Origin: Candidatus Woesearchaeota archaeon
GTDB taxonomy: Archaea; Nanobdellota; Nanobdellia; Pacearchaeales; GW2011-AR1
DNA: 9,912 nt
Reading direction: 5' to 3'
Assembly (NCBI GenBank): GCA_964485045.1
Contig: CAZAGO010000019.1
Coordinates: forward strand, 3,100 to 13,011
Shown here: piece by piece, positions 2,259 to 9,912 of the stretch
Layout of the letters: each line of letters begins with the position of its first letter
Numbering within the stretch: the first letter of the stretch is position 1
The notes under the pieces: model-generated
The model's database searches: none
The model's input: the letters and a program-made list of their open reading frames with translations, nothing else
Told to the model about the DNA's origin: nothing
Made by a program: the position numbers and the translations under genes

Positions 2259-2603
2259 CTACTTAAGAGATTTCACCACTTTAGAATGTTTTTTTGTTAA
2301 AGGAATTTCAATTAAATTAAAAAAACCTTGTTTTGGAGGAGAAACATGAAAAGTAAATGGTTCCACTTTTTTTAAAAACAAAATTTTATTTTTATCGTCG
2401 GTCCAGATAGCAATAAAAGGAAAAAAAACAAATAAAGAGTGTATTGAAAAATAAGTCTTCTTCTTAGATAAGAAAAATAAAATTTTAGCATTTTTCTCTT
2501 TTGAAAACATCAAACCAACTACTTTTTCAAAAAAATTGCATTCAAAACCCTTCAAAAATATCTTTTTCTTTCTTTTAATTAAACCAACTCTTATTTTTTT
2601 CAT
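2259..2603 (-). CDS. DUF192 (COG1430)-like small protein
   Basis: 114-aa ORF. The GLMF...ILFF...(hydrophobic)...IAIWTDDKNKIL...NLIEIP pattern resembles the DUF192 consensus (GLM-x-r ... gmlF ... M-x-n-t-x-x-P-L-D-i-x-f-x-d-x-x-g-x-I ... vlE). A GGAGAGG lies 10 nt upstream of the ATG. The ORF overlaps the upstream gene by 29 nt. Confidence 0.55.
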   Translation of the reverse strand: MKKIRVGLIKRKKKIFLKGFECNFFEKVVGLMFSKEKNAKILFFLSKKKTYFSIHSLFVFFPFIAIWTDDKNKILFLKKVEPFTFHVSPPKQGFFNLIEIPLTKKHSKVVKSLK

Positions 2604-2973
2604 CTTTACATGTCCTCTCCAAGTACAAAGAGTATAATTTCTTTATATTTTTTTCATTCACAAAATCATGGTGTTTAAATCCTCCACCAAATCCCTGAGG
2701 AATATGCATTAACTCGTGTATTATTACTTTTGTTTTATCTTCATCACTAAGATTATCAAATCTTTCTGATAAGAATTCTAAAACATAAAATGCTTTTACT
2801 CCAAGAGCTTTTTGAAGAAGTTTTTCCAAAGAATGACATCTTGCAATCGTTCTCCTAGAAGAAGTTCCATAACTTCTAAAACATTTTATTCTAGTTAAAT
2901 CTATATGAGGAAAAAGAATCTTTGAAATTTCTTCTGCTTTTAACTGTAAATCTTCAGCAAATTCATATCTCAT
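2575..2973 (-). CDS. Predicted zinc metallopeptidase (HExxH; archaeal COG4900-like). The longest ORF extends to 3033, but Met21 (2973) is preferred.
   Basis: HELMH is followed by IPQGFGGGFKHHD, and ARCHSL is followed by AFYVLEF. This matches my recollection of the COG4900 'predicted metallopeptidase' family, whose members begin about M-x-Y-E-x-A-x-D, the same as MRYEFAEDL here. Start 2973 removes a 5'-5' overlap with the divergent MBL gene and is equidistant from the shared TATA. Confidence 0.75.
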   Translation of the reverse strand: MRYEFAEDLQLKAEEISKILFPHIDLTRIKCFRSYGTSSRRTIARCHSLEKLLQKALGVKAFYVLEFLSERFDNLSDEDKTKVIIHELMHIPQGFGGGFKHHDFVNEKNIKKLYSLYLERTCKDEKNKSWFN

Positions 2974-2994
2974 TAAAGAAATAAAACAAAAACC

Positions 2995-3002
2995 TTTATA
3001 TT
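2995..3002. promoter_or_regulatory. Shared TATA-box candidate (TTTATATT) in a 50-nt divergent spacer between the metallopeptidase and MBL genes
   Basis: The octamer centre (2998.5) is exactly 25.5 nt from the ATG at 2973 (minus) and 25.5 nt from the ATG at 3024 (plus). Confidence 0.5.
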
Positions 3003-3023
3003 CTTTTAGAATTAAACTTCTTA

Positions 3024-3545
3024 ATGATTTCAAAAATAAAAGAAAACGTATGGAGATTCAAATTTGATAAATTTGGCTCTTATGTATATTTAATAAAAAT
3101 AAAAGAAAAAAACATTCTGATAGATACCGGTTCTTTTTTTAACAGAAACCAACTAATCGAAGACCTAAAAAAATTAAATATTTCTTCAGAACAAATAGAA
3201 ACTATTATTTTAACTCATCATCATTTTGACCATACTCAAAATAAAAGCTTATTCAAAAATGCAAAAATATTTGGAAGCAAAAAAGATTTTCCACAAGAAG
3301 AAGTAAAAGATATAAAAAAAATGAATATTAAAGAGTTCAAATTAATTGAAACTCCAGGGCATTCTAAAGGAAGTATATGTATTTTATATAAAGATATTCT
3401 TTTTTCAGGAGATACTCTTTTCCATAGAAACACCATAGGAAGAACAGACTTACCTGGAAGCTCTGAAAAAGAGATGCAAGAGTCTTTAAAAAAACTTAGT
3501 GAAATAAAATTTAAAATTCTCTGCCCAGGACACGGGTGTGAATAA
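3024..3545 (+). CDS. MBL-fold metallo-hydrolase (short, glyoxalase II/hydroxyacylglutathione hydrolase-like)
   Basis: 173-aa ORF with the canonical motifs in order: THHHFDH (HxHxDH), TPGHSKGS (His), GDTLF (Asp) and CPGHG (His). Confidence 0.9.
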   Translation: MISKIKENVWRFKFDKFGSYVYLIKIKEKNILIDTGSFFNRNQLIEDLKKLNISSEQIETIILTHHHFDHTQNKSLFKNAKIFGSKKDFPQEEVKDIKKMNIKEFKLIETPGHSKGSICILYKDILFSGDTLFHRNTIGRTDLPGSSEKEMQESLKKLSEIKFKILCPGHGCE

Positions 3546-5643: not shown

Positions 5644-7236
5644 TTAGATAGTCTTAGGAAGATTTAAAGAAAGTTTACTTAATTTCAAAGCCTTTTTTTC
5701 CTCTTCTTCTCTCTTTCTCCTTGCCTCATCTTTTCTTCTCTTTTTAATAAAGAATATCGCAAATATTATTAGTAGAATTAATATTCCTATAAGAATAAGA
5801 ACAATAATCCACATAACAACGGAAACTGTTTCTAATTGAAAAGTATCTGAACTAACTGCAATTTTATCTTCATATATTATTTTAGAATAAAAGACATACC
5901 TTCCCATTGGTATGCCTTCTGGGACTTTTAAAGCAACTTTCTTTACAAAGATATCTTTTTGAATAGTAACATTTTCAACTCTTGAATTATAAACAATATT
6001 GTTAAAATCCATAATTCCATACTCAATAGCAACATTTACCGATGGAACATCACCAATATTTAAGGCTCTAATTTCTGCAGAAGCTAGGCCCCCTGGAAGG
6101 ACGTATTTTTTAAGAGTGGTTGTTTTAGTGTCAAAAAGAGTTGATAATTCTTGAACCTTTATTCCTAAATCTACAGAAGCGCTTATTCTTCCAGAAGTAA
6201 AGGTAATTTTTCCTGTATACAACTCTGCTCTATTCCTAGCAGAAGCATAAACATGGAAATTATAAATTCTAGATTCGCCCGGCCTTAAAACAAAACTTCT
6301 CTCCCCTAATCTAATGAATTGTGAAATGATTTGAGATGAAGACACACTTACCGTTAAATTTGTTTTTCCTTGATTAACCACAGTTACTTCTCTTGGATAA
6401 AGCTTTCCTTTCTCTATATCTATTAGATCAGATTTAGGAAGGACATACAGAATAGACTTTGTTGTTTCGTTCGGAGAAGTAAAATTTCTTCCTCCAATAG
6501 CTCCTCCCCCTCCTCCAGAGCTTCCTCCACCTTCTTCATCTTCATCAGGAGGGCAAATCCCGCAATCTTCAGGACAAGAAGAACATATCTCTCCATTATT
6601 ACAAATTCCATCACCACAATATGGAACTTCTACCTCAGAAAGAGAATATGTTGTCAAAGCGGAATGTTCCAAGTATAATACTTGAAATACAACTGTTCCA
6701 CCAGAATGACTAACAATACTACAAATACTTCCAGGACAAGATACTCCATTTCTTAAAATTTTAGGAGAAGGATAATCTATCCCATAAAAAGTAATTTTTG
6801 CTGAAACATTCAAACTTGAAAGATTTGGAGAACGAACAGAAAGAAGATTTTCAGAAATATTAAGATTAGAATCTATATTTACAACTCTATCATAAAGAGT
6901 TCCTGTAGGGCTATAAGTATCTTTGGTTAAATTAATTTCTTCATCAAAAATAATTCTCCCATATCCAAATCTATCTAAAAGCATATCATCTATTTGCTCT
7001 AATTCAAAATTACCCAAAGAATAAAAATCGGTAGTTTCTCCATCAAAATTATTTACTAAAACAAATATCTTTTGAGACTCACTTATTCCAAAAGAAATCT
7101 CCGCATCTTTTGAAACGGAATATCCTGTTAGAGATAAATCTTCAAAAAGAGAAGAAACAAAAAAAGAATTAAAAAAGAGGATATTTACAAACAAAAAAAT
7201 AAATCTAAACAAGATTAAACCTCTTTTACAATCCAT
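5644..7236 (-). CDS. Large type-I membrane-anchored surface protein of unknown family. Order of elements: signal/anchor, N-terminal domain, Cys-rich knot, acidic/poly-Gly hinge, two beta-sandwich-like modules, TM helix, charged cytoplasmic tail.
   Basis: 530 aa. Elements by residue:
- Hydrophobic N-terminus, res ~7-30.
- CGDGICNNGEICSSCPEDCGICPP, res 207-230.
- DEDEEGGGSSGGGGGAIGG, res 231-249.
- CARDB-like strings (EVTVVNQGKTNLTVSV...LRPGESRIY...YTGKITF and LKVPEGIPMGRYVFY).
- TM helix, res ~474-497.
- Tail KKRRKDEARRKREEEEKK.
- About 8 N-x-S/T sequons. Confidence 0.8.
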   Translation of the reverse strand: MDCKRGLILFRFIFLFVNILFFNSFFVSSLFEDLSLTGYSVSKDAEISFGISESQKIFVLVNNFDGETTDFYSLGNFELEQIDDMLLDRFGYGRIIFDEEINLTKDTYSPTGTLYDRVVNIDSNLNISENLLSVRSPNLSSLNVSAKITFYGIDYPSPKILRNGVSCPGSICSIVSHSGGTVVFQVLYLEHSALTTYSLSEVEVPYCGDGICNNGEICSSCPEDCGICPPDEDEEGGGSSGGGGGAIGGRNFTSPNETTKSILYVLPKSDLIDIEKGKLYPREVTVVNQGKTNLTVSVSSSQIISQFIRLGERSFVLRPGESRIYNFHVYASARNRAELYTGKITFTSGRISASVDLGIKVQELSTLFDTKTTTLKKYVLPGGLASAEIRALNIGDVPSVNVAIEYGIMDFNNIVYNSRVENVTIQKDIFVKKVALKVPEGIPMGRYVFYSKIIYEDKIAVSSDTFQLETVSVVMWIIVLILIGILILLIIFAIFFIKKRRKDEARRKREEEEKKALKLSKLSLNLPKTI

Positions 7237-7252
7237 TGTTAAAAAAGACCAA

Positions 7253-7264
7253 TTTATTTTAAAT
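7253..7264 (-). promoter_or_regulatory. TATA-box candidate for the 530-aa surface protein gene
   Basis: The minus strand reads ATTTAAAATAAA. The core octamer is centred about 23.5 nt upstream of the ATG at 7236. Confidence 0.35.
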
Positions 7265-7270
7265 ACCTTT

Positions 7271-7684
7271 CTAGAAAAGGAAAAAATCTTTTTTCAAATA
7301 AACTTTAAACTTTCCAGAATAATTCCCATACACTGCTGAAACTGGAACAGTTGCAGAAATTAAAATTATTTTTTCTTCATAGGGTTTAATCTTTATTTTT
7401 TCTTCAAAAATAAGAAAACTAGAAATATTCCCTTCAGAATTAAAAAAAGCTACGACTGGAAAAGAATAATTACTTTTTATCATCAAACTACGAGAAGCAT
7501 TAAGCCCAGGAGAAACTGTTCCGAAAGAAAGGATATTTCCTGCTTCAAAACCTGCTATCTCTTCAACTTTCAAAAAGATAGGGAATTCTTCCTCTATTAA
7601 TATAGAAGACATATTAAAAAAAATAAAAAAAGCTAAAAATAAAAGAAAGAATAAAATAAATAATCGTTTTTTAATTAAATCCAT
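7271..7684 (-). CDS. Small secreted or N-terminally anchored single beta-sandwich-like protein of unknown family
   Basis: 137 aa. The N-terminus is hydrophobic (res ~8-24). It then has LSFGTVSPGLNASRSLMIKSN ... ATVPVSAVYGNYSGKFKVYL, the same 'FG...VP-x5-G-x-Y-x-G' module pattern as its neighbours. It carries 5 N-x-S/T sequons and starts 12 nt after the stop of the upstream gene. Confidence 0.65.
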   Translation of the reverse strand: MDLIKKRLFILFFLLFLAFFIFFNMSSILIEEEFPIFLKVEEIAGFEAGNILSFGTVSPGLNASRSLMIKSNYSFPVVAFFNSEGNISSFLIFEEKIKIKPYEEKIILISATVPVSAVYGNYSGKFKVYLKKDFFLF

Positions 7685-7696
7685 CTTAAAATATAT

Positions 7697-8857
7697 TTAT
7701 TTTTTACGAAAATATTTTTTTAAAACAAATATAACTAACACAATTAAAAGTATAATTCCTACACTTATTCCTAGAATGATTTTCCAATTAAGAGATTTTT
7801 TTATAAATTCTACACTAACCAATTCACCAGAACTCTTCCCTACATCTTTTCCATAATAAAAGAATGTTATATTTGCATCATAAACCCCTTCAATAAAATA
7901 AGAAGTATCAAAATAACCTGTAATAGTTTTTAATTCCCAAGGATTTAAATTTGTTGAAGAAGTTTTGAAAAAAAGTATTTCCGATGTTTCATTTAAAAGA
8001 GAAACATCAGCGTATATTCCATCAATCTTATCATTCCATCCGCTTTCAATTTCAATATTAAACTTCTGTATTTTTTTGTCTATAATAAATTGATTGGTAT
8101 AATTTTTCAGAGATATTGCTAGTTCGCCTATTCTAAAAAAAGTATTTTCACGAGAAGGATAATCTCCTCCATATTCTACACTTAAAACTCCATTATATCT
8201 ACCAGAATTAAAAGAAGATGTTTCTAAATGTTTACGAAGAGAAATTTTTTGAGTTGGATCCAAACTTCTTTCTTCTAAATAAAGTGTTTCAACTAATTCA
8301 CTACTTTGATTTGAAAATATTTCTATCTTTGGAAAAATTGCAACCTTCTCTTTACCTCTATTTGTTACATCAAATTTAAATTCAAGACTTTCTCCTATAT
8401 TTACATCCTCTGAAGTAAAAGAAGATATTTCAACATACTTTCCAGGATAAGGAACATAGACTGAAATTAAAACTTTTATTTCTATAGCCGTTCCTATAGT
8501 GCTTTTTAGAAGTTCCTCATCAACTGCTTCTTTTACCCCTATAAGAAGCGTATGTTTTCCTGGTTTTTCTATTACTGAAGGAAAAGTTAAATTAACTCTA
8601 AAAGAACCATCTCCTAATAATTCTTTTTTATCTATACTAACATATTCTGATAAATCCCCTTCAGAGTAAATAGAATAAACAGTATTAGGATTTGCTCCAG
8701 AAAGAGAATAATCTATACTCTCTTTTAAATTTGGTTGAAAATTAATTGAATAGCTAGCAGGTGTTATCCCCAGCGCGGATGAAAAAGTTATCAGAAATAA
8801 AAATAAAAAGAAAATTAAAAAAATTCTTTTTAAAAAAAATGAATCAAATTTCACCAT
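7697..8857 (-). CDS. Type-I membrane-anchored surface protein with three beta-sandwich-like modules, unknown family
   Basis: 386 aa. The signal peptide has an SSA|LG-like cleavage context (res ~10-29). I see three modules of roughly 100 aa; modules 2 and 3 are CARDB-like (FKFDVTNRGKEKVAIF...GRYNGVLSVEYGGD and GVYDANITFFYYGKD). A TM helix at res ~357-379 is followed by KKYFRKK. There are 5 sequons. Confidence 0.8.
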   Translation of the reverse strand: MVKFDSFFLKRIFLIFFLFLFLITFSSALGITPASYSINFQPNLKESIDYSLSGANPNTVYSIYSEGDLSEYVSIDKKELLGDGSFRVNLTFPSVIEKPGKHTLLIGVKEAVDEELLKSTIGTAIEIKVLISVYVPYPGKYVEISSFTSEDVNIGESLEFKFDVTNRGKEKVAIFPKIEIFSNQSSELVETLYLEERSLDPTQKISLRKHLETSSFNSGRYNGVLSVEYGGDYPSRENTFFRIGELAISLKNYTNQFIIDKKIQKFNIEIESGWNDKIDGIYADVSLLNETSEILFFKTSSTNLNPWELKTITGYFDTSYFIEGVYDANITFFYYGKDVGKSSGELVSVEFIKKSLNWKIILGISVGIILLIVLVIFVLKKYFRKK

Positions 8858-8880
8858 ATTAAATAAACTAAAAATAAGTT

Positions 8881-8890
8881 TTTATATATT
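8881..8890 (-). promoter_or_regulatory. TATA-box candidate for the 386-aa/137-aa gene pair
   Basis: TTTATATATT lies in the 45-nt spacer. The TTTATATA core is centred 27.5 nt upstream of the ATG at 8857. Confidence 0.4.
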
Positions 8891-8902
8891 GCGTATAAAA
8901 AA

Positions 8903-9514
8903 CTAATCTATAACTGTTGCTGTAGCAGTAATTACACTTCCTTTCGCACCTTTCACTGCATCTTGAGGAACATTTAATTGAACATCAATATCTAAAGTGT
9001 CCTGAGCATCATAATAAGTAAAATTATCACATCCTGCTTGAGAGACTCCCGTAGCTGTAGCATAAGTACTAGCCAAACCAGTTGTACAAGAACTAGATTC
9101 ATTTTCAGTGACCTTTATCTGATATACAGGACTACTTCCTCCAATAAACCCTGCAGCAGTATTTGAAGTGGTTAAATTAAGCTGAATATTACAATTTCCA
9201 TCATTTCTTACAGTCAATCCCTGATCAACAACACTCCAATTTCCATCTGTAACTGTACCCTCTGAATTTAAAACAGCATAAATTGCAGTTTCATTCACTC
9301 TTCCTATTCCCCAATTAATTATATTTGTAGGAAAAGTTATAGATGCTTGAGAAACTATACTTAAATTTGCAGTTCCAATCCCCGTGGCATAACCTGTCAA
9401 AAGAGGTGTTCCTCCCATTTTATAAAAAGTAACCCCAATATTAGCCAATGCAAAGAATATAAGAATAAGGGCAAAAACAAAAAAAAATTTATTCAACTTT
9501 TTTTTCTCAATCAT
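8903..9514 (-). CDS. Secreted Thr/Ser/Gly/Asn/Ala-rich beta protein (203 aa). It is a candidate surface-fibre or coat subunit of unknown family.
   Basis: A Lys-rich n-region and hydrophobic segment (res ~10-31) are followed by LLTGYATGIGTANLSIVSQASITF...INWGIGRV...TVRNDGNCNIQLNL...DVQLNVPQDAVKGAKGSVITATATVID. It has 6 N-x-S/T sequons, 4 Cys and no C-terminal anchor. Its start is coupled to the upstream ORF by an ATGA overlap (9511-9514). Confidence 0.75.
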   Translation of the reverse strand: MIEKKKLNKFFFVFALILIFFALANIGVTFYKMGGTPLLTGYATGIGTANLSIVSQASITFPTNIINWGIGRVNETAIYAVLNSEGTVTDGNWSVVDQGLTVRNDGNCNIQLNLTTSNTAAGFIGGSSPVYQIKVTENESSSCTTGLASTYATATGVSQAGCDNFTYYDAQDTLDIDVQLNVPQDAVKGAKGSVITATATVID

Positions 9515-9750
9515 ATTTTATTAAATCCTTGTAAGATTGCCCCCATTCCTTGTATTATTAATCCCACTTGAGCAGAACTAGAATCAATCGGTTTAGAACT
9601 ATTCTTTGAAAAATAATTGCATCCAGATTCAAAACAAATAGAAAGACCTATGGAAAAAACAGAAAGAACAATTGCAAAAATCAACAAAACAATTATAATT
9701 CTTTCATTTATTTCGGAACATTTTTTTTCACTCTTTTTGAATGATTTCAT
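9511..9750 (-). CDS. Small single-pass membrane protein (79 aa), first gene of the transcription unit that contains the 203-aa protein
   Basis: A basic N-terminus (MKSFKKSEKK) is followed by a TM helix (IIIVLLIFAIVLSVFSIGLSI) and a Ser-rich tail. A TATA octamer lies 25.5 nt upstream. Its stop overlaps the next start (ATGA). Confidence 0.5.
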   Translation of the reverse strand: MKSFKKSEKKCSEINERIIIVLLIFAIVLSVFSIGLSICFESGCNYFSKNSSKPIDSSSAQVGLIIQGMGAILQGFNKI

Positions 9751-9771
9751 AAGTGATAAGAGACTTTCTCC

Positions 9772-9779
9772 TTTATAAA
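9772..9779 (-). promoter_or_regulatory. TATA-box candidate for the 79-aa/203-aa gene pair
   Basis: TTTATAAA is centred 25.5 nt upstream of the ATG at 9750, within a 48-nt spacer. Confidence 0.45.
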
Positions 9780-9798
9780 TATTTCTTCATACTAACAT

Positions 9799-9912
9799 TT
9801 ACTTCTTTTTCTTTTTTAAAACTACAAACCAAATAACATTTGAAAGAATTAATAAAATGACTATTGCTATCAAAATATTTGTTAAATTAAGCTTTCCTCC
9901 TCCTCTAACTAC
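9799..9912 (-). CDS. 3' end of a further membrane-anchored protein (partial, continues beyond the right window edge; not in the ORF track)
   Basis: Hand translation of the minus strand from 9912 gives VVRGGGKLNLTNILIAIVILLILSNVIWFVVLKKKKK*, with TAA at 9801-9799. This is the same C-terminal 'TM helix + Lys tail' architecture as the 386-aa and 530-aa proteins. Confidence 0.5.
   Translation of the reverse strand, partial: VVRGGGKLNLTNILIAIVILLILSNVIWFVVLKKKKK

Follow-up and report, generated by a model that had tools for sequence, protein, structure and literature searches.

The window analysed here, a stretch of 9,912 nucleotides from a Candidatus Woesearchaeota archaeon (contig CAZAGO010000019.1, positions 3,100 to 13,011 of the forward strand), was found to hold the genes (C)-D-E-F-G-H, which make up most of a conserved eight-gene cassette, A-B-C-D-E-F-G-H, of the Woesearchaeota and Pacearchaeota (DPANN archaea). 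The cassette runs past the right edge of the window with the remainder of C, followed by B and A. As the likeliest of the explanations considered, although a tentative one, it is proposed that the cassette builds a membrane-anchored strand-complementation fibre or stalk displaying the variable, often giant adhesin A. The gene content, the topology signals, the folds of F and of the E core, the homologies, the gene order, the coupling, the promoters and an occasional signal peptidase are directly supported by the data. The literature was searched for donor-strand fibres of DPANN archaea and for this cassette, and no description was found.

Twelve independent loci from metagenome-assembled genomes (MAGs) of Woesearchaeota and Pacearchaeota and from metagenomes were compared (the window together with L001, and L002, L005, L006, L008, L010 and L012 to L017). 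They were gathered via the context of increasingly distant homologs (38-61% identity for E, 45-48% for F) and by exact-protein look-ups; a scan of species genomes with the F protein returned the near-identical MAG only, as short-peptide seeding misses diverged relatives. L001 is a 98%-identical contig of a Candidatus Woesearchaeota MAG that reaches beyond the right edge of the window and shows the full C gene (399 amino acids, aa), preceded by B, a 162-aa transmembrane protein. The order (A)-B-C-D-E-F-G-H was kept in 12/12 loci, and with it the order of the 79-, 203-, 386-, 137- and 530-aa genes whose conservation had been raised as a question in a first-pass annotation of the window. The spacing pattern was likewise common to the loci: A, B and C overlap or abut and are followed by a gap, D and E overlap and are followed by a gap, F and G overlap and are followed by a gap, and H comes last. 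D and E overlap by 4-17 nt in 9/10 loci, and the D stop overlaps the E start in the window as well. The F-G overlap is 14-35 nt in the relatives, and a gap of 12 nt is found in the window. G of L001 begins six codons further upstream (MYFKMDLIKK...) and directly adjoins the stop codon of F (3824-3840 in L001 vs 7684-7700 in the window); the first ATG of G in the window gives 137 aa, which represents either a start-site difference or a mutation in the F-G coupling region.

A chance cluster of unrelated secreted hypothetical proteins, or a mobile or viral island, would agree with the lack of a curated family for any of the proteins and with the frequency of hydrophobic N-termini in AT-rich small genomes. 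Order, spacing and promoters kept in 12 loci at a protein identity of 38-60% speak against it, and by this synteny it is effectively refuted. There were also 0 PHROG matches, the GC content equals that of the flanks, neither an integrase nor a repeat boundary was found, and the chromosomal neighbours are conserved; such an origin is considered extremely improbable. The first-pass annotation had proposed a dedicated, undescribed surface structure rather than a random collection of genes, and this is supported by the conserved order, the coupling and the linkage to an A protein with an E-type domain.

Topology was assessed with a Kyte-Doolittle scan. An N-terminal hydrophobic helix was present in 5/5 complete open reading frames (ORFs), D to H. 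At the C-terminus, H, F and the partial C have a transmembrane helix with a K/R tail behind it, while a comparable segment occurred in 0/9 housekeeping proteins of the same window. The density of N-x-S/T sequons was about 3-fold higher in the surface genes than in the cytoplasmic neighbours (1.9 vs 0.65 per 100 aa). Both hydrophobic features had been read from the letters in the first-pass annotation and were recovered by the scan; the ORF list agreed with its statement that every ORF from 9912 to 5644 lies on the minus strand, and the strings it had quoted from the modules (ATVPVSAVYGNYSG, LKVPEGIPMGRYVF, LNVPQDAVKGAKGS, GRYNGVLSVEY and GVYDANITFFY) are all present. Its placement of the ectodomains outside the cell is borne out by the topology signals, and the findings that it had listed as contrary to its proposal were not obtained. 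Its statement that no protein can be assigned to a named family also held: D to H of the window gave nothing above threshold against Pfam, NCBIfam, PHROG and PDB sequences, and no PDB sequence was retrieved above threshold by the profiles of C/F, E and H or by single-sequence queries.

The surface filaments of archaea are in most cases type IV pili, and the C-terminal transmembrane helix and basic tail of C, F and H superficially resemble sorting signals; in L002 and L010, moreover, the cassette is closely followed by genes for type IV pilin-like proteins. A surface system of the type IV pilus kind, or one processed by an archaeosortase, was nevertheless judged to be highly improbable. The defining motifs of class III signals, prepilin peptidase and sortase-type or PGF-CTERM signals were absent, as had been noted in the first-pass annotation. 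No [KR]-G/A cleavage site precedes the hydrophobic stretch, and the conserved motif stands after the helix. An ATPase of the assembly type, a PilC-like platform protein and a prepilin peptidase (PibD) were found in 0/12 loci, the only nearby ATPase being the MoxR protein of the long variant described below. Neither a PGF/PEF/VPXXXP-CTERM signal nor a conserved Pro-containing motif precedes the C-terminal helix of C, F and H, and NCBIfam sorting-signal matches were sub-threshold only and of the transmembrane-composition type. The pilin-like proteins directly downstream in L002 and L010 have class III N-termini (KKAISAVITTLILV and KRGLSTVVTTLIIIL, respectively) and Cys-rich ectodomains, match each other by blastp (E-value 1e-8) and belong to a filament type unrelated to the cassette.

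E was examined in an alignment of 78 members sharing 29-47% identity with the protein of the window. It comprises a signal/anchor helix, a conserved segment and a beta-sandwich core with an invariant Cys pair (Cys143/Cys162). The segment after the signal follows the pattern [ILF]-T-G-[FYLH]-[AV]-[TS]-x-x-[GA]-x-[VAI]-N-[LVI]-[TS]-[VI]-...-I-N-F-[TS]-...-I-[ND]-[WF]-G-x-G-x-V and is conserved like the core, with about 2.4 bits per column; Gly41 is invariant (78/78). Sequons are conserved at N50 (N-L-S/T; 66/78), N60 (I-N-F-T; 64/78) and N92 (G-N-W-T). Together with the Cys pair they suggest that E is a glycosylated, disulfide-bonded extracellular protein. An exhaustive profile search returned 1,941 clusters at 50% identity with E-values of 1e-3 or lower and 322 at 1e-30 or lower, nearly all of about 200 aa; named members are listed as 'hypothetical protein [Nanoarchaeota archaeon]', and the family had no Pfam match and no PDB-sequence match.

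The beta-sandwich structures expected in the first-pass annotation were returned by AlphaFold2 (AF2) for the F protein, with three domains and a transmembrane helix, and for the core of E. The overall predicted local distance difference test (pLDDT) score of the E model was 68, with 70-88 in the core and 34-49 in the conserved segment (residues 37-75), which is the sole part left unplaced in the monomer. In the TLP-1 fibril, the donor strand is reported to behave in the same way (PMC11494351). The top of the Foldseek list for E consists mostly of donor-strand filament subunits, namely TLP-1a, AbpA, FimA, FimG, the PapG pilin domain, CfaB and Pyrodictium cannulae. Pyrobaculum AbpA (7ueg_A) was one of the two best matches (probability 0.89, E-value 0.048, TM-score 0.39/0.43).

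A 'TG + beta-strand' element follows the signal helix in 10/10 E and 7/8 H proteins, and in 0/25 proteins of G, B and F, at a chance expectation of 0.07-0.15 per protein (0.07 for H). The small protein D has an N-terminal transmembrane helix (residues 11-44), then a polar linker and, at the C-terminus, the strand AQVGLIIQG; by eye, every D ortholog closes with G-x-[VI]-x-L-x-I, which resembles the N-terminal strand of E. The translational coupling of D and E implies a roughly 1:1 stoichiometry. Tandem duplications were observed as E-D-E in L006 and as D-E-D-E in L014 and L017. The two D-E copies of L014 are nearly identical, which suggests that this translationally coupled pair was duplicated recently.

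Every A protein ends in a domain of ~150 residues that is clearly homologous to E (blastp E-values down to 3e-9; hhalign 98.2%, E-value 4e-14, E residues 47-203). A lies outside the window. It is adhesin-like, often giant and highly variable, ranging from 299 aa to 7,847 aa with LamG, FG-GAP, beta-helix, S8 subtilase or RCC1/WD40-type repeats.

C and F are paralogs (about 27% identity, blastp E-values 1e-20 to 1e-43). C, as seen in L001, has a signal peptide, three immunoglobulin (Ig)-like domains, a transmembrane helix and a K/R tail, and its part inside the window ends with the transmembrane helix and KKKKK. The F model (AF2, pLDDT 92) shows a signal helix, beta-sandwich domains at residues 30-135, 142-244 and 248-353, a transmembrane helix at 358-384 and a short K/R tail. 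The F family comprises at least 207 clusters (90% identity), all annotated as 'hypothetical protein' and assigned to Nanoarchaeota, Pacearchaeota or Woesearchaeota. In C, by eye, a 'G[LIV]TG[KHR]V[VI]V' strand stands directly before the transmembrane helix in 7/9 proteins. G combines an N-terminal transmembrane helix (residues 2-32) with one Ig-like domain, in which an 'L.FG.(I/V)' motif occurs, and carries 5 sequons vs 0.8 expected; its profile similarity is weak (hhalign 58% to C/F domain 1, 40% to the first Ig domain of H).

The order of elements in H is a signal/anchor helix, 'LTGY + strand', a conserved N-terminal domain (residues ~55-200), a Cys-rich motif, a Gly-rich linker and two CARDB-like Ig domains, followed by a transmembrane helix (residues ~465-501) and a long K/R/E-rich cytoplasmic tail. 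The H family is small and fast-evolving, and H is regarded as a candidate membrane-anchored base subunit. Its first Ig domain is related to C/F domain 2 (hhalign 90%, E-value 1.5e-6). The single paralogous module that the first-pass annotation had seen across the locus was thus recovered in C, F and H and weakly in G, whereas E stands apart and is related only to the C-terminus of A. The modules of the locus fall into two families, C, F, H and G carrying a CARDB/Ig type and E and A an E type, and the one-module idea is therefore only partly right. E was rejected as a part of the shared Ig module, since hhalign comparisons of E with G, B, C/F and H aligned the transmembrane helices only.

The N-terminal ectodomain of H gave sub-threshold matches to the Nup98-96 S59 autopeptidase fold. 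PF04096 was matched by 7/10 H members, all below threshold (best E-value 2.5e-4), and NUP116-CTD was the top PDB-sequence match of the H profile (E-value 0.018). The end of the domain, 'F.V.Y(F/L)EH(S/T)(S/T).TTYSL' (VVFQVLYLEHSALTTYSL in the window), recalls the 'HF|S' autocleavage site of Nup98, with a His that is not universal. Autoproteolysis of H at this domain is possible.

A small archaeal-type/SipW-like signal peptidase I gene (about 160 aa) lies between G and H in 3/12 loci. The proteins of L013, L015 and L017 scored 63.2, 55.4 and 54.9 bits with TIGR02228 (cutoff 51.85), and SipW was the second-best model. A 'long' cassette variant was observed in five loci (Table 1). Its H has ~660-700 aa with an extra Cys-rich C-terminal region and is followed by a ~57-aa protein, a ~1,300-aa Ig-rich transmembrane protein (DUF4625/PKD-like matches), a MoxR AAA+ ATPase, and DUF58 and VWA/BatA proteins; this Bat-operon-like module does not occur in the window. 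The statement in the first-pass annotation that the locus contains no ATPase or enzyme thus applies within the window, whereas some relatives add the signal peptidase I and the MoxR/DUF58/VWA block.

Candidate promoters were located before D, F and H (Table 1). For the count across loci, an octamer ending 19-24 nt before the ATG was required (background 0.017 per position). The F octamer was present in 10/12 loci with the consensus gtaa(a/g)(g/a)TATAAAAA and the H octamer in 6/11 loci with the consensus gaaag(g)TATTTAAA. Support for D was weaker (3/11 loci within the 19-24 nt range); a D-type element, aaatgTTTATAAA, was seen in L006, L008, L012 and L014. A positioned octamer before B, C, E or G was found in 0 loci. 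TATA octamers were not enriched over the whole window (7 found vs 7.0 expected), and only their position-specific conservation across loci is informative. The fixed-position octamers before D, F and H support the units D+E, F+G and H and predict leaderless or near-leaderless transcripts. The three transcription units with a TATA element each that had been drawn in the first-pass annotation are upheld by these octamers, which end 21 nt before D, F and H, and by the coupling and gaps across the relatives.

We infer strand exchange, polymerisation, the order of the subunits and the adhesive function as follows. E, the candidate major subunit, would be the repeating unit. Its signal peptide would be removed near the invariant 'TG[FYH]A' site, which resembles the 'GTWA' of TasA only loosely, and the N-terminal strand of the mature protein (G-x-V-N-L-T-V) would pair in trans with a neighbouring E-type domain. 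A would form the distal adhesin, docked to the assembly by its C-terminal E-type domain. By analogy, the arrangement of A and E would follow the logic of tip adhesin and pilin domain in FimH or TafC. H, which shares the 'TG + strand' element and is fixed in the membrane by its C-terminal helix and cytoplasmic tail, may for this reason act as base or terminator. D, as a tiny membrane-anchored and strand-ending protein coupled 1:1 to E, may cap or tether E before or during assembly. C and F, as membrane-anchored tri-Ig proteins, would serve as WxLIP/AbpB/TapA-like assembly chaperones or stalks, with B and G as their small single-domain partners.

Several observations weigh against a strand-complementation fibre. 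The E model was built from 15 sequences, and its low N-terminal pLDDT may reflect a shallow alignment rather than pairing in trans. All Foldseek matches of E were non-significant (best E-value 0.04, TM-score at most 0.48). No sequence match of E to TasA (PF12389), DUF1102, WxL or solved pilins was found among the 78 members; TIGR04088 was matched by neither E nor its 78 relatives, the E profile retrieved no TasA or AbpA chain from the PDB sequences, and PF13731 was matched by neither the window protein nor the 78 members at E-values up to 1, the conserved Trp residues occurring as 'INWG' and 'GNWT'. In A, the counterpart of the N-terminal E strand runs on covalently from the domain before it and may thus simply be the first strand of its own domain. 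A D:E ratio of about 1:1 fits a heterodimer or tether better than the rare terminator of a long polymer. Finally, the window has no signal peptidase in the cassette, the G-H gap being 34 nt.

The closest competing explanation is a display system similar to WxL clusters and non-polymeric, in which C and F (WxLIP-like) would each capture one E-type domain by strand insertion and thereby tether E and A, with D, G, B and H as further anchors or spacers. No fibre would be formed. This is a possibility of some weight, although on balance an unlikely one. Published WxL clusters consist of a small WxL-only protein, a large protein whose binding domains are N-terminal and whose WxL domain is C-terminal, and WxLIP with a signal peptide, two Ig domains and a transmembrane helix (PMC10599100, PMC9772566), and AF2 predicts a WxLIP strand that inserts beside the WxL N-terminus (PMC10599100). 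The cassette shares this three-part logic of small, large and anchored protein, and the cluster parts can be mapped one-to-one onto E, A and C/F, the latter with signal peptide, Ig domains, transmembrane helix and basic tail. PF11797 (WxLIP_HBD/DUF3324) is the sole curated family that recurs on C/F; it was matched by 5/12 members, all sub-threshold (best E-value 2.5e-6, 27.9 vs 28.9 bits and thus near the threshold), and faint precomputed matches were also present in L010, L012 and L016. The solved WxLIP structures of E. faecium (9i25_C and 9i1y_A) appeared among the Foldseek matches of F with E-values of about 1e-8. The D-E coupling suggests 1:1 complexes, and the continuity of the E-strand counterpart in A with the domain before it likewise favours such a display.

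The WxL analogy is limited on several sides. The WxL domain was matched by 0/78 E members and the dual W-x-L motif is not present. C and F have three domains instead of two, and DUF916 (PGBD) was not detected in them. The WxLIP structures reached only ranks 30 and 37 for F (TM-score 0.36-0.38), behind generic tandem-Ig proteins and in a list that also holds PapD-like and ASH folds. These archaea, furthermore, are without peptidoglycan to which a WxL-type domain could bind. D, G, B, H and the TG-strand motif have no WxL counterpart, and the motif shared by E and H, the duplicated D-E pairs and the SipW-type peptidase would be left unexplained. A direct sequence link of C to solved WxLIP was rejected, the single match being spurious. 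As an accessory or stalk protein anchored in the membrane, F is comparable to WxLIP, AbpB and TapA.

By analogy, the cassette parallels several known kinds of system, namely Tafi, archaeal bundling pili (ABP) and TasA donor-strand fibres as well as WxL/WxLIP clusters. Tafi pili have a tip protein, TafC, made of a laminin-G-like and one pilin-like domain, pilins TafA and TafE joined by N-terminal donor strands, a membrane anchor or terminator, TafF, and a dedicated S26 peptidase, TafD; they are assembled at the cytoplasmic membrane, and taf-like clusters also occur in Thermococcales and Archaeoglobales (PMC11821415, PMC12337348). Common to both would be a multi-gene cluster without ATPase, subunits of about 200 aa with a beta-sandwich and an N-terminal strand, a tip of pilin-like and laminin-G-like adhesin domains, an anchored protein with a pilin-like element as the proposed terminator, an S26-type peptidase in the cluster (here in 3/12 loci) and assembly without usher at the cytoplasmic membrane. 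In contrast to Tafi, E, B, G and H gave no DUF1102 or DUF5305 match, E matched no family of the TafA/TafE type, homologs of TafG (DUF5305) and TafB were not found, and the cassette signals are of the Sec type instead of Tat. The pilin-like domain of the adhesin is C-terminal in the cassette and N-terminal in Tafi. The cassette adds the tri-Ig, transmembrane-anchored C and F and the small transmembrane proteins B, D and G; its peptidase is small, single-domain and missing from most loci including the window, and its hosts are DPANN archaea, for which such systems are unreported.

For ABP, the gene of AbpA (204 aa) is directly followed by that of AbpB (410 aa), a TapA-like protein with signal peptide and three beta domains, and the bacterial tapA-sipW-tasA operon contains sipW (PMC9245690). 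E (203 aa) followed by F (386 aa) mirrors AbpA and AbpB by analogy, as a subunit followed by a signal-peptide protein with three beta domains. Donor-strand polymerisation without chaperone or usher, as in ABP and TasA, is proposed likewise for the cassette, and a SipW-type peptidase, as encoded in the TasA operon, occurs in 3/12 cassette loci but not in the window. AbpB and TapA differ from C/F in being without a C-terminal transmembrane anchor, and a giant adhesin sharing the pilin domain is not described for ABP or TasA. Chaperone-usher systems (Fim/Pap) resemble the cassette in the two-part tip adhesin, the Ig-like subunits with N-terminal extension, the anchoring terminator and the strand-lending Ig-fold chaperones. 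They differ in that this monoderm archaeon has no outer membrane or usher, the putative chaperones are anchored and have three domains, and a sequence relationship is missing; usher-like or PapD-family Pfam matches were found in 0/12 loci, and the likeness is one of analogy only. The Sulfolobus thread (Saci_0406-type), which is built by donor-strand complementation plus isopeptide bonds, was retrieved from the PDB sequences neither by E itself nor by the family profile, and its subunit was missing from the best 50 Foldseek matches of E.

The left half of the window encodes archaeal housekeeping proteins (Kae1, an NTP-transferase, a metallo-beta-lactamase (MBL)-fold protein, YggU and a YGR210-type GTPase), and H is followed by the GTPase gene. 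The GC content is about 24-36% across the window without a compositional break, and an Rfam scan of the window gave no RNA family. In L008 and in L016, a Pacearchaeota MAG, the cassette adjoins the same housekeeping genes as in the window, and it is therefore a vertically inherited core-genome feature and not an island. A 'putative phage metallopeptidase' gene (PF18894) overlaps the MBL-fold gene head to head in the window. This pair, with YggU, a CxxCxxCC protein and Kae1, adjoins the cassette again in L008 and L016 and therefore represents a conserved chromosomal neighbourhood rather than prophage debris. Toxin-antitoxin-like pairs (nucleotidyltransferase/HEPN, also ParE and PIN) were observed beside the cassette in L002 and L010, and inside it, between A and B, in L008.

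A conserved core-genome neighbourhood beside housekeeping genes (window, L008, L016) would also suit a general role in the envelope. S-layer-associated or membrane-proximal structural proteins could be co-located because they are regulated or secreted together, and would neither form a fibre nor serve specifically in attachment. Each product is beta-rich and either anchored or extracellular, the cassette is very widespread in the clade, and no curated adhesin domain lies inside the window. The tight linkage to a hypervariable, giant adhesin-like A sharing the E domain is at odds with this explanation, and the strand motif, the coupled pairs and the dedicated peptidase of some lineages point to a specific multi-subunit assembly. 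S-layer proteins, moreover, are usually single, abundant and large. A general envelope role was accordingly rated as improbable.

Table 1. Positions of the cassette genes, candidate promoters and neighbouring features in the window and in related loci.
Feature	Sequence	Positions	Strand	Remarks
Gene H	Window	5644-7236	-	530 aa; ORF list
Gene G	Window	7271-7684	-	137 aa; ORF list
Gene F	Window	7697-8857	-	386 aa; ORF list
Gene E	Window	8903-9514	-	203 aa; ORF list
Gene D	Window	9511-9750	-	79 aa; ORF list
Gene C, C-terminal end	Window	9799-9912	-	37 aa inside the window; right-edge partial ORF, VVRGGGKLNLTNILIAIVILLILSNVIWFVVLKKKKK up to the stop
Gene C, complete	L001	522-1721		399 aa
TATA-like octamer TTTATAAA	Window	9772-9779	-	Ends 21 nt before D ATG; candidate D-E promoter
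BRE (B recognition element)/TATA-like element aaTATATAAAAA	Window	8879-8888	-	Ends 21 nt before F ATG; candidate F-G promoter
TATA-like octamer TATTTAAA, preceded by gaaagg	Window	7258-7265	-	Ends 21 nt before H ATG; candidate H promoter
N-terminal ectodomain of H	Window	6640-7075	-	Residues ~55-200
PF18894 gene	Window	2575-3033	-	'Putative phage metallopeptidase'
MBL-fold gene	Window	3024-3545	+	
Signal peptidase I	L013	11632-12108		Between G and H
Signal peptidase I	L015	11613-12104		Between G and H
Signal peptidase I	L017	12012-12494		Between G and H
Long-variant block	L005	8917-14693		
Long-variant block	L013	14280-21173		
Long-variant block	L014	13673-20889		
Long-variant block	L015	14375-21164		
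Long-variant block	L017	14722-21179		
E-D-E	L006	5726-7296		Tandem duplication
D-E-D-E	L014	8218-9824		Tandem duplication
D-E-D-E	L017	8050-9957		Tandem duplication
Type IV pilin-like proteins	L002	13288-14292	-	Directly downstream of the cassette
Type IV pilin-like proteins	L010	8296-9096		Directly downstream of the cassette
Toxin-antitoxin-like pair	L002	14567-15573		Adjoins the cassette
Toxin-antitoxin-like pair	L010	1026-1656		Adjoins the cassette
Toxin-antitoxin-like pair	L008	1969-3013		Between A and B

A wider reading of the strand-complementation fibre is doubtful, but may be stated. The cassette would represent an undescribed donor-strand system that is near-universal in Woesearchaeota and Pacearchaeota, in which the anchored chaperones C and F and the strand donors D replace chaperone and usher. 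An E polymer on the base H with the tip A would form a host-attachment organelle, and the system would be an evolutionary bridge between the WxL/WxLIP proteins of Firmicutes and archaeal fibres of the TasA/Tafi type.

In sediments and groundwater, Woesearchaeota and Pacearchaeota belong to the most abundant archaea without cultured members and are presumed to live attached to hosts; to our knowledge, no attachment structure has been assigned to them. The cassette provides a specific and testable candidate for the attachment of these symbionts to other cells, a role which we infer. The gene set is clade-wide, with about 1,900 clusters for the E family and over 200 for the F family, each annotated only as hypothetical, and its link to giant, fast-evolving adhesin-like proteins suggests a route of tethering via the shared C-terminal E-type domain. 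If strand complementation holds true, the known range of donor-strand fibres without usher (TasA, ABP, Tafi, threads) would come to include the DPANN archaea; anchored Ig chaperones and strand donors would be added to their components, and the enigmatic WxL/WxLIP clusters of Gram-positive bacteria would be connected with them. For the annotation of these genomes, the two families E and F and the constant order of the genes can serve as markers, and they also offer targets for metaproteomics and cryo-electron tomography.

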